Positions 4,073 to 59,059 of a DNA stretch of 64,000 nucleotides are shown one piece after another (positions within the stretch are counted from its first letter, which is position 1; each line of letters begins with the position of its first letter). The notes under the pieces are model-generated. The model ran no database searches. It worked only from the letters and a program-made list of their open reading frames with translations, and was not told the DNA's origin. The stretch lies in contig OX597826.1 in assembly GCA_951406725.2 (NCBI GenBank), positions 48,422,001 to 48,486,000 of the forward strand. Reading direction: 5' to 3'. Made by a program: the position numbers and the translations under genes. Source of the stretch: Octopus vulgaris. Lineage: Eukaryota.

Positions 4073-4678
4073 ATGTATATTATCATCATCATCATCATCA
4101 TCGTCGTTGTCATTTGAACATTCATATTGCCATGCTTTCATGGGTCTGATATGATTTTCAGACAAGTTTGGAAACACACAATGCTTGTTTATAACCATCA
4201 TGCAATGCATGTATTTGTGTGTGTGTGTGTGTGTGTGTGTGTTTGTCCCCACACTATCAGTTGACAATCAATACTGGTGTGTATTTCTGTCCCCATAACT
4301 AAGCAGTTCAGCAAAAGTGACCAATAGAATAAGTACTAGGTTTACAAAGAATACAAAAACGTGGATGTTGATTTCTTTGACTAAAACCCTTGAAGGTGGT
4401 GCTCCAGCATGGCCACAGTCAAATGACTGAAACAAGTAAAAGAATAAAAGTATATACACTTATGTGTTATGTGTGTATGTATATATATATATATATATAT
4501 ATATATATATATATATATATATATATATATATATATATATAGAGAGAGAGAGAGAGAGAGAGAGAGAGAGAGAGAGAGAGAGACAGAGAGATAGAGAGAT
4601 AGATAGATAGATAGATAGATAGATAGATAGATAGATAGATAGATATAGATATAGATCAAAACTGCTTGATTCAAATTC

Positions 4679-4723
4679 ATTGGTACTCATGAGTTTCAAG
4701 CACGATGCTAGTCATCAGCCATT
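4679..4723 (-). ncRNA. Minimal type I hammerhead ribozyme (Penelope pLTR-type)
   Basis: Minus strand: aatgg CTGATGA ctagcatcgtgctt GAA ACTCATGAGT A ccaat. Palindromic stem III, GUA site, stem I tgg/cca. Confidence 0.75.
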
Positions 4724-4741
4724 TTGAATTTGAAAATTTTA

Positions 4742-4786
4742 AATGACTGATGACTAGCATCATGCTTGAAACTTGAGAGTACCAAT
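4742..4786 (+). ncRNA. Mirror hammerhead copy, partly mutated
   Basis: aatga CTGATGA ctagcatcatgctt GAA ACTTGAGAGT A ccaat. Confidence 0.6.
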
Positions 4787-6090
4787 GAATTTGAATCAAA
4801 CTGTTTTGATTCATGCATAAAACTCTCAATAACTGTTGTTGAGTGTCCTTCTTTCATTTGCTCACTCACTCATATATATATATATATATATATATATATA
4901 TATATATATATTATAGATAGATAGATAGATAGATAGATAGATACATACATACATACATACATACATACATACATACATACATATACATACATACATATAT
5001 ACAAGCATGTCTAGATATGCAAGTATATGCATGAGAAGTTATACATATATAAAGCCAAACATACAAATCTGCACATATACATATATTAAAAAAAAAATAC
5101 CCTATTGTTGATGTTGAAATTCCAATGAAGGAGACGTGGATCTAGGTTGGAAACAAGCTCTTTCTCTATTGGCAAGAAATCTTGAAATAAAACTGAATAA
5201 TGACATACACACTTACATGTATACATATATATATATAGAATCAGCAAATGAGATCCAGAGATGCTTAGTACAGAAATGACTAAGTGGTGCTTAAATAATT
5301 TGAACTTACACTAAAAAATCTCTGTTAGATACATATCTCTCCACCCTAAAAGCAGAGGCCAGATCTACCTAATGTTTATATGCCTCCAATACTGGTTGTG
5401 TATTCTTGCCTTTTTGCAAACTACATTGGCAACATTATGAAATAATTCTGAGACTCCAGAAACAGCTGTCGAATTTGTAACGCCATAACTCCTCCCTTTA
5501 ATTTTATGTGTCTTTGTATTCTGTGTAATTTTGCTTTGTTAATATATGCATATCTATATATTTATACACTAGTTTATAAGCCCTTCTTCCCTGATAATTC
5601 CCAGGGAAGCAGGGCTTATCCCTTGGTTCCGTTCTCATAATTGTTTCACTAATCCAATAACAACAATACAAAGTATGTAGTGTGTTTGTGTGGCTGTGTT
5701 TGTCCCTCAAACATCACTTGACAACCGATGCTGGTGTGTTTATGTCCTTGTAAGTTAATGGCTCAGCAAAAGAGACCAATAGAATAAGTACTAGGCTTTC
5801 AAAGAATAGGTCCTGGGGTCGATTTGCTCAACTATAGGCGGTGCTCCAGCATGGCTGCAGTCAAATGACTGAAACAAGTAAAAGAGTAAAAGAGTGGGGA
5901 CTCTCTAGCAACCCTTAAAGGTATCTCTATTATATCACTCCAAAAAGGATGGAAGGCGAAGGTGACTTCAGCAAAATTTGAACTCATGGCACAAACATCC
6001 TGAAGTTATATCACTGAGTTGACACTCTGATAATCCCACCAATCCAGTATCTTTGGACGAGATATTTGTTAAAGTCTTCTAAAGTTAGAT

Positions 6091-57079: not shown

Positions 57080-57235
57080 TTGTTGTTGTTGTGGCGGTGG
57101 TGTTGGTGGTGGTTGTGGTGATGGTGGTGGTGGTGGTGGTGGTGGTAGTGGTGGTGGTGGTGGTGGTGGTGGTGGTGGTGATGGTGGTGGTAGTGGTGGT
57201 GGTGGTTGGTGGTTGGTAGTGGTGGCGGTGACGGT
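57080..57235. repeat. (GGT)n microsatellite
   Basis: Direct reading. Source of the poly-Pro ORF. Confidence 0.9.
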
Positions 57236-58686
57236 GTCTTTGTATTTTTGTTTAGTGGTTATTTGGGGAAAAAAAGGGTGAAAAAAAAACAACCTACAAT
57301 ACACCAACAACAGCAAATATCAGAAATTAATTAATGAGACAATGAGGCTTGTTTTCTGTCTGAACCTTGAAACCTGTTGCAAAAGTTCTAGCTTTTTCAC
57401 ATAGATTTGATTTCTAGTTATCTCAATGCTGCTTTGCTTTGAGTGAAAACTTAAGCAAAAATTGAAACACTGTTTTTGTTCACTGTTTTGCTTTAATTTA
57501 TTGTATTTTTCTTTTTTACTTGGAAGATATACATATCTATAAATTTGTGTGTATGTGTGTGTGTGTATGTGCATTTATGTATTTATATTTGTGTGTGTGT
57601 ATATTTTATATATATATATATATATATATATATATATATATATATTTAGTTAAATATGTATACATATATTTATTATATATAAGTATAAATATAAATATAT
57701 ACATACATACACAGACACATATATAGATATATACATATATATATATTTACATAGAGATAGATACACATACATATATGCATACACATACATATGTATACGT
57801 ATTTTATATGTATGTGTGTGTATACATACATATATGTGTATATATACATAGTTTTATATATATTTGTATATATAAATATATATATACATATATGCATATA
57901 TATACATATACATATATATATATACATATGTATATATACCTACATATATATATATTTATATTCATATATTATTATCATTTACATATATATATACATACAT
58001 ATATATATACACATATATACATAGATATATATATATACATATATATATATATATATATATATATATATATATATATATATATACATTATCATATACATAC
58101 ATACATAATACATACATACATACGTGTGTGTGTGTGTGTGTATGAAGGCATAATAAACATCTTCAATATATGTTGATAACTTTTATATATTTAAATAGGA
58201 ACAATTTGTTAGGATTCAAATCTAGAAGTGAGAGAGAAATATATATAAGAATATTGTTGTTCTTATGTTACTTGTTATTCTGGATTTTTTTCTACTGAGG
58301 AATGTATAAATTGATTTGTTTCAAATAAAATAAAAATTTTATATAAAATAAAACAAAATTTAAATATAAAAATAATTAAAGCTCAGTCCACAAGTTATCC
58401 TTACTTTTAAAAAGAGTATTCCAAGAGTATTTCAAGAAAAAAAAATTTGATGCAGATTCTCTCCTCAACTTTCTCCTTTATGGTCAATGCGACCATCACA
58501 CGTTACACACCTTCCTTTCAAGCACTGACCACGTATATATGCGTACATATACATAATATATTCACAGACACACACACACACACAAGCACACATACTTACA
58601 TACGTAAGTATGTAGGTATGTATACTCTCACATATACATATACATACATACATATATACATATATATATATATATATTATAAATAA

Positions 58687-58859
58687 GGCCAAAAGAAAAA
58701 CATTTCTATGCCAATATGCTGAGAAATAGACTTTAAATCACTATACATATAGAGCGTGTTGAATCGAGGTGTATTTATAGTGATGTATATTGTATGTGGT
58801 GATTGACGATTTAAAGTCTATTTCTCAGCATATTGGCAAAGAAATTTGTTTCTTTTGCC
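58687..58859. repeat. Inverted repeat (~53 bp arms, 68-nt spacer); cassette tail to ~58955 is homologous to 35783-35877
   Basis: tgccaatatgctgagaaatagactttaaatc / gatttaaagtctatttctcagcatattggca. Confidence 0.88.
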
Positions 58860-59059
58860 ATTGTTCATAATTGTTTATAATTTTCACCTTAAAGGTATTT
58901 TAATATGATTGCCACTTCATGAAATTTTTTAGAAAATTTTATCCTATATTAGAAGTATATATATATATATATATGTGTGTGTGTGTGTGTATATATGTGT
59001 ATATGTATATATATATATATATGTGTGTGTGTGTGTGTGTTATAATATTTTACTCTGAT

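Follow-up and report, generated by a model that had tools for sequence, protein, structure and literature searches.

Palindromic cassettes in TA-type microsatellites of Octopus vulgaris: probable Penelope-like insertions of an autonomous element and of hammerhead-bearing tandem units

Insertions of endonuclease-bearing (EN+) Penelope-like elements (PLEs) are described as 5'-truncated, with an inverted pseudo-long terminal repeat (pLTR) placed head to head, a tail at a single end and palindromes at the inverted junction that have been read as self-priming (PMC3846280; PMC8557442). Targeting of (TA)n is a published PLE trait, and the origin of the tandem and inverted structures is called an open question (PMC8557442). 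Seven short cassettes of this architecture lie within 64,000 nucleotides of Octopus vulgaris DNA (assembly GCA_951406725.2, contig OX597826.1, positions 48,422,001 to 48,486,000), a stretch called the window below; they are labelled A (4655), B (32150), C (34616), D (40820), E (41154), F (43696) and G (58676). The cassettes are real and are largely explained by known PLE biology: each is very probably one 5'-truncated insertion into a (TA)n-type array, made by a PLE protein with reverse transcriptase (RT) and GIY-YIG domains through fold-back and priming at two points, X (the pLTR-end point) and Y (the tail end). The original prediction had seen in them a large class of fold-back PLE insertions, or of non-autonomous ribozyme retroelements, without open reading frames (ORFs). 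Both kinds are present, the former in B and the latter in C, E and G; since the architecture has already been published for PLEs, they do not form a new class.

Within the PLEs, the Hydra clade, which includes Hydra-1_Obim, is marked by RWK-like and DKT motifs, CxxC/CxH and a C-terminal EN, targets (TA)n and always carries hammerhead ribozymes (PMC8557442, section 11). The Poseidon PLE cuts both strands of AT-rich DNA in vitro, and its RT begins at two internal sites bounding the tail (PMC11167929). Non-LTR retrozymes are tandem repeats that lack ORFs, bear a type I hammerhead in each unit and have monomers of ~300 nt, or 350-390 bp in mussel (PMC7229834; bioRxiv 10.64898/2026.07.22.740005). 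The text of the preprint proposes from phylogeny that they derive from PLEs and leaves the mechanism of their mobility open. Hammerheads with a short palindromic helix III that are active as dimers have been published as well (PMC4209133).

All seven inverted repeats were recovered at their predicted places by masked self-BLAST of the window, about 27% of which is microsatellite, and were confirmed by alignment (Table 1). The predicted TA-type setting stands too, every cassette adjoining (TA)n or TA-derived arrays, with GATA/TCTA/TC arrays on one side of A and C. The two arms differ from each other by ~1-27%, through substitutions as well as indels. A one-sided extension of ~55-155 nt, the tail, occurs in each cassette, where 60-150 bp had been stated, and lies on the left side in B, C and E; the tails reported for EN+ PLEs are shorter, at 30-40 nt, and most copies here are stumps of 200-500 bp (PMC3846280; PMC8557442). 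The accompanying idea of a longer tailed arm fails in D, in which the tailless arm reaches 198 nt upstream of X and the tailed arm only 76 nt. The invariant of the cassettes is one X end and one Y end, not a short arm and a long arm. None of the 21 pairs of window copies shows significant likeness, and the claim that the cassettes are unrelated in sequence therefore holds pairwise; at the profile level it does not, because the D profile matches 5/5 F sequences (best E 1e-4) and the F profile 15/15 D sequences (best E 6e-4), reversed controls reaching 0.66 at best, and D and F are related at the X/tail region. Motifs that by eye seemed common to C, E and G were not significant (best E 0.6-1.2).

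All seven cassettes are members of high-copy families, and copies were compared family by family. A first look gave 989-2758 candidates per family (989 for A), figures which are not copy numbers, and 40 were scored in each. The original prediction had asked whether inversion centres are private to each copy or shared. Copies of A, B, C, D, E and G vary in their flanks and centres, and their two outer ends are fixed, at X and Y; the centres of the few native F copies differ likewise, and only the high-copy F palindrome has a shared centre. Among the two-armed loci of A, B, C, D and G, 128/141 have X/Y ends, one has Y/Y, none has X/X and 12 have one end off; the share is 22/25 in A and 18/20 in E. 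In less biased subsets X/Y ends were found in 5/8 loci of C, with exactly one Y end in all eight, and in 8/10 loci of E. Each insertion is thus head-to-head, with one X and one Y as its outer ends, a centre of its own and arms from one subfamily.

Cassette B can be tied to a coding element. At locus L091 the B tail runs directly into the RT start codon, next to a tandem relative with RT and EN, and at L079 a tailed arm of 1.7 kb includes the end of a GIY-YIG-type ORF ahead of the B arm and tail. At these loci the B arm corresponds to the pLTR, and the tail to the 5' untranslated region (UTR), of an element with RT and GIY-YIG. Its organisation, a single ORF for RT and C-terminal GIY-YIG followed by the pLTR, was identified by motifs and homologues, the ORF of the L091 copy being split into two frames. 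The L091 proteins come from a relative of B (~77% identical in the pLTR) and contain RWL, DKT, CxxC and CxH around the E/N residues of the EN; the start of B's own ORF has the same RWL motif region. By eye they match Hydra-1_Obim, and 716 homologues were found at E <= 0.001, including a named homologue in Argonauta, while a PDB search of the PLE proteins gave no match. A hammerhead in the pLTR, a tail and a (TA)n target are all present in B. On motifs and by-eye comparison, rather than a tree, B is classed as a 3' terminus from an autonomous PLE of the Hydra clade, like that clade in its C-terminal EN, RWK-like, DKT and CxxC/CxH motifs, hammerhead and (TA)n target. B and its L091 relative are families other than Hydra-1_Obim, differing from it, again by eye, in their long helix II region (55 nt) and extended N/S-rich linker. 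The predicted lack of ORFs accordingly applies to C, E and G but not to B, whose cassette is a truncated copy of an autonomous element. L091 holds two Hydra-type families side by side, in both of which RT and EN are separated by a long N/S-rich stretch; N-rich inserts at this position are described for EN+ PLEs (PMC3846280, for Adineta PLEs; PMC8557442). A search of sequencing runs, made for B only, returned none recorded as RNA among those listed.

B also provides a sample without architecture bias, as a 27-mer of its tail has 369 exact matches in the genome and the first 30 of them represent 29 independent loci. The tail ends at +149 to +162, that is, within 14 nt, and (TA)n-type sequence comes next at almost every locus; an inverted pLTR arm is adjacent in 15/29. 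The inverted arm ends at X in 13 of these 15 inversions, and all 15 centres differ. The inner ends of the two arms lie within 45 nt of each other in 10/15, against 3.0 expected by permutation (p = 1e-5), and the coupling is retained at cut-offs of 25 nt (p = 0.0011) and 15 nt (p = 0.0015). The tailless arm reaches further upstream in nine inversions and the tailed arm in five, with one equal. In 3/15 the tailed arm does not extend beyond the tail. Simple fold-back of the tailed strand cannot produce this, and two primings are therefore needed; the coupled inner ends would then point to fold-back of complementary DNA (cDNA) after the two primings. Most B junctions share 1-12 nt, as judged by eye. 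Arms within a copy differ by 1.3% and arms of different copies by 6.5%, the former value being lower in 27/27 comparisons; the gap is smaller in older families, e.g. C (7.0% versus 9.1%). Equal cDNA lengths, as from a lock-step dimer, were considered and rejected, as 0/15 B inversions fit. At L262, L268 and L272 the B insertion consists of the tail alone, set in (TA)n and starting at X or immediately past it; here the Y-primed strand may stop at X.

A course of insertion may be proposed from these structures. The template would be the element's own RNA in B and a short hammerhead-bearing tandem RNA, borrowing the protein, in C, E and G and probably in A, D and F. Both target strands would be nicked, and two set positions inside the RNA would serve as RT starts, X for the cDNA on one strand and Y for that on the other; the stretch of RNA from X to Y would supply the tail. 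Such a pair of primings, one on each nicked strand, is suggested by Poseidon_Ac with its paired internal start sites (PMC11167929); that system resembles the present model in its two internal RT starts bounding the tail, the cutting of both strands at AT-rich DNA and a predicted dimer, but its start sites lie inside the ORF, whereas Y lies upstream of the B start codon. The two cDNAs would be joined via microhomology of 1-12 nt. Usually one cDNA end would fold back near itself, producing a near-perfect palindrome in which either arm can be the longer, and sometimes the Y-primed cDNA would halt inside the tail and be joined directly, as in twin priming. Later independent decay of the arms would make the arm-to-arm distance a date of insertion, and one F insertion would subsequently have been captured and multiplied by a Helitron. 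The text of PMC11167929 available to us gives no account of inverted arms or of one-X-one-Y pairing, and no fold-back or twin-priming account of PLE inversions was found in the literature covered.

The families C, E and G repeat in tandem. The unit of E is 476 nt long and has a single type I hammerhead (L143, L146); C repeats at 566 nt, with a hammerhead in L046, L107 and L286 (one was seen in the 1.6-unit array of L286); and G repeats at ~490 nt (L203, L210), with hammerheads in L193 and L210. Cassettes C, E and G of the window are parts of such units, and in C, E and G the hammerhead of the family lies upstream of the portion kept in the window. By their sequences the three families match the non-LTR retrozyme definition of ORF-less tandem hammerhead units. 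They differ from published non-LTR retrozymes in unit length (476-566 nt) and in being dispersed with PLE-type X/Y ends and inversions. The multi-unit insertions of E are also head-to-head, with one X and one Y end; its units are 1.6 substitutions apart within an insertion (7 pairs) and 5.8 between insertions (98 pairs), a difference that leaves a circular template and a homogeneous array indistinguishable. In comparison with EN+ PLEs, the X/Y signature occurs here on ORF-less tandem units as well, which is new, junction-level evidence for PLE integration of retrozyme-like units. The word 'inverted' does not occur in the main text of PMC7229834 and appears in the text of bioRxiv 10.64898/2026.07.22.740005 only in a reference title. 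No account of the octopus units or of X/Y ends on retrozymes was found in the literature covered; subscription papers, Repbase and bioRxiv supplements lie beyond this coverage and may hold such. An isolated family-G tail is situated between TA arrays at 35805-35870.

Of the four hammerheads that had been predicted to point away from the centre, the direction was right, but exact cores were located within three cassettes only (A, B and D), each directed outward. No unit length was found for A and D, and no hammerhead in the 190 nt known of F. A scan for type I hammerheads gave eight matches in the window, compared with a mean of 0.57 and a maximum of 2 in 30 resampled windows. When Rfam was searched in E-value mode, no hammerhead was among the matches listed (150 of 401), nearly all of which were miRNA-type matches to repeats. 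The interval 22690-22870 is the hammerhead-bearing end (core 22837, minus strand) of another multi-copy family, which is palindromic in L106 and L272. A single-arm 3' end of a C-like unit at 36030-36300, with a hammerhead at 36270 (minus strand), stops at (TA)n and is 71-75% identical to the copies at L213 and L094.

The 40 best copies of F are 99-100% identical, have the same centre and common flanks, and are embedded in a unit of 1953 bp. Helitrons begin with TC, end with a hairpin followed by CTRR, and insert between A and T without target-site duplication. The unit in the window begins with TC after A, has a 3' hairpin at 44492-44507 and ends with CTAG (44516-44519) before T, and its flanks differ between copies. 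The 3' end is present in 58/60 loci and the 5' end in 44/60, and a relative with the same ends (L235) holds a Pif1 2B domain. The high-copy, identical palindrome of F was amplified as a unit by a Helitron. Among tail-picked F loci 29/30 are Helitron cargo, as are both of the two examined among 18 matches to the F centre motif; the native copies L203 and L258 have other centres. Over 59 Helitron-borne copies the centre is stable, and four arm differences are kept in 49-58 of them, on many contigs, which argues against an artefact and against fast conversion between arms. Non-autonomous Helitrons with captured DNA have the same 5' TC, 3' hairpin with CTAG, A|T target, tandem arrays and cargo, but the cargo here is a palindromic PLE-type stump with its own microsatellite flanks. 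On contig C2 (206158679-206186204) at least 13 tandem units with the F centre motif are spaced by ~2.18 kb and probably represent the composite in tandem. A second, partial Helitron 5' part directly follows the composite in the window (44520-44800), and an isolated tail piece of family F lies at 11365-11403.

Table 1. Coordinates of the palindromic cassettes and of the composite carrying cassette F (positions in the window)
Feature	Coordinates	Strand	Parts	Inverted-repeat span	One-sided extension (nt)	Hammerhead in cassette
Cassette A	4655..4871	+	tailless arm 4655-4730 (reads -), tailed arm 4735-4810, tail 4811-4871	4655-4810	61	minimal type I core in both arms, 4718- and 4747+
Cassette B	32148..32634	-	tail (= 5' UTR) 32148-32302, pLTR arm 32303-32478, inverted tailless arm 32479-32634	32298-32639	155	with long helix II in both arms, 32438- and 32510+
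Cassette C	34616..34952	-	tail 34616-34709, arm 34710-34818, 22-nt spacer, inverted arm 34841-34952	34710-34952	94	
Cassette D	40820..41128	+	tailless arm 40820-41007 (reads -, longer), tailed arm 41001-41073, tail 41074-41128	40819-40887/41008-41070	55	hammerhead-like core in tailless arm, 40981-
Cassette E	41154..41537	-	tail about 41154-41281, arm to 41410, inverted arm 41410-41537	41268-41543	~126	
Cassette F	43696..44018	+	inverted arm 43696-43830, arm 43835-43954, tail to 44018	43696-43954	~61-64	
Cassette G	58676..58955	+	inverted arm 58676-58745, arm 58766-58871, tail 58872-58955	58676-58871	84	
Non-autonomous Helitron-like composite	42567..44519	+	1953 bp, carries cassette F			

Twin priming is a known process of L1 elements, and in a pure form it would join two independent, randomly truncated cDNAs by microhomology without fold-back, the near-symmetry of the palindromes arising later by deletion of the centre or by sampling. 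The Y arms confined to the tail in 3/15 B inversions, with similar tail-only Y arms in C (L280, L282, L284) and D (L161), agree with it, as do the microhomologies at junctions and the seemingly uncoupled long E arrays. We nevertheless regard it as unlikely, because the inner ends of 10/15 B inversions are no more than 45 nt apart, in young copies with ~1% arm divergence, and the F centre has remained unchanged in its Helitron-borne copies. Artefacts of assembly or of amplification fold-back at microsatellites are scarcely credible. Contigs from four sequencing runs did not span the B centre and a few copies have identical arms, but the window arms differ by substitutions and indels, the F arm differences are fixed in nearly all cargo copies across many contigs (49-58 of 59), the outer ends fall at two family-specific points, and the family sequence occurs in independent sequencing runs of several labelled organisms.

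The cassettes also look like miniature inverted-repeat transposable elements (MITEs), namely non-autonomous DNA transposons with long terminal inverted repeats (TIRs) and variable internal deletions inserted at TA, in that they are short palindromes at TA with variable centres and the F copies are identical. This origin is highly improbable for the seven, and is already contradicted for B, C, E and G. The termini of a cassette are unlike each other, X at one end and Y at the other in 128/141 two-armed loci, so that matching TIRs are not found; the B arm is the pLTR of an RT element, and the B ends are not common to a transposase element. C, E and G form head-to-tail arrays of hammerhead units, about half of the unbiased B copies have a single arm only, and the identity of the F copies is accounted for by their Helitron carrier. 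The window does contain a Tc1-like symmetric palindrome, the eighth, at 61723-62128, which lends the MITE explanation some support; it has 71% arm identity, no tail, CAGT-type ends beside TA and, in its centre, a short remnant whose motifs we take to be those of a Tc1-like transposase. It is probably a true MITE and had no match among the loci examined. At 16371-17704 inverted ends (84%) surround a decayed coding remnant, presumably of mariner/Tc1-like kind.

Several points weigh against insertion by X/Y priming and fold-back. Most loci in the X/Y counts were chosen with X/Y-shaped queries and are biased accordingly, the G locus L203 has Y/Y ends, and 14/29 independent B loci have no adjacent inverted pLTR arm. 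The link of arms to PLE 3' ends, which the original prediction had called for, was made in B with its RT and GIY-YIG element, but A, C, D, E, F and G have no identified protein partner. Pfam gave no RT or GIY-YIG match for the L091 and L079 proteins, Rfam at gathering score found no hammerhead in the window or in 11 loci, and minimum-energy folds lacked the full three-helix hammerhead form. The coupling test drew on a single family, at 15 loci taken with flanks of 1.5 kb; L254, with an inverted ORF piece, was excluded, and L260 and L261 extend past the flank. The 10 long arrays of E show no apparent coupling of inner ends, which differ by ~10-200 nt. Target-site duplications are unreadable in (TA)n, and later central deletions could symmetrise palindromes as well.

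Density was estimated in 370 one-kb pieces of locus flanks (370 kb), which are not a random sample and carry no correction for palindromes lost at the edges of pieces. They contain 25 palindromes of any kind, about half of which have the cassette architecture by eye and come from at least a dozen further families. This suggests one cassette per 15-30 kb and, by rough extrapolation, a number of the order of 100,000 in the 2.8-Gb, 227-contig genome; the earlier figure of about one per 9 kb looks high genome-wide. A 2026 paper on O. vulgaris repeats assigns 6.83% to PLEs and does not use 'palindrom', 'ribozyme' or 'hammerhead' in its main text (PMC13282606). For annotation it matters that the cassettes resemble MITEs yet are retro-derived. 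To the described PLE architecture they add junction evidence for PLE integration of retrozyme-like units, a testable model of two primings and fold-back, and a Helitron-amplified passenger.

In the material of PMC5625713, loci that can form long double-stranded RNA (dsRNA) make up an unusually large fraction in octopus, and hyper-editing is strongest there. The palindromes are a candidate source of the octopus dsRNA for hyper-editing. Further potential sources lie at 10023-12100, 18139-18549 and 48982-49882 of the window, where common interspersed repeats form inverted pairs whose members are no more than 2 kb apart.

Both the origin of inverted PLE structures and the mobility of non-LTR retrozymes can be tested at thousands of junctions in this genome, through the pairing of X with Y ends, the coupling of inner ends and the recurrence of this signature on hammerhead units that lack ORFs, and the arm-to-arm divergence gives each insertion a clock of its own. 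A more far-reaching possibility, which we consider doubtful, is that circles of non-LTR retrozymes are integrated by PLE proteins through paired internal priming at X and Y, giving ~100,000 palindromes in dozens of families and a source of dsRNA. If this were true, internal initiation would spare a free RNA 3' end, and the RT may roll round the circle, resulting in head-to-head X/Y tandem arrays; the palindromes, often annotated as MITEs or unknown repeats, may then provide much of the long dsRNA behind cephalopod hyper-editing.

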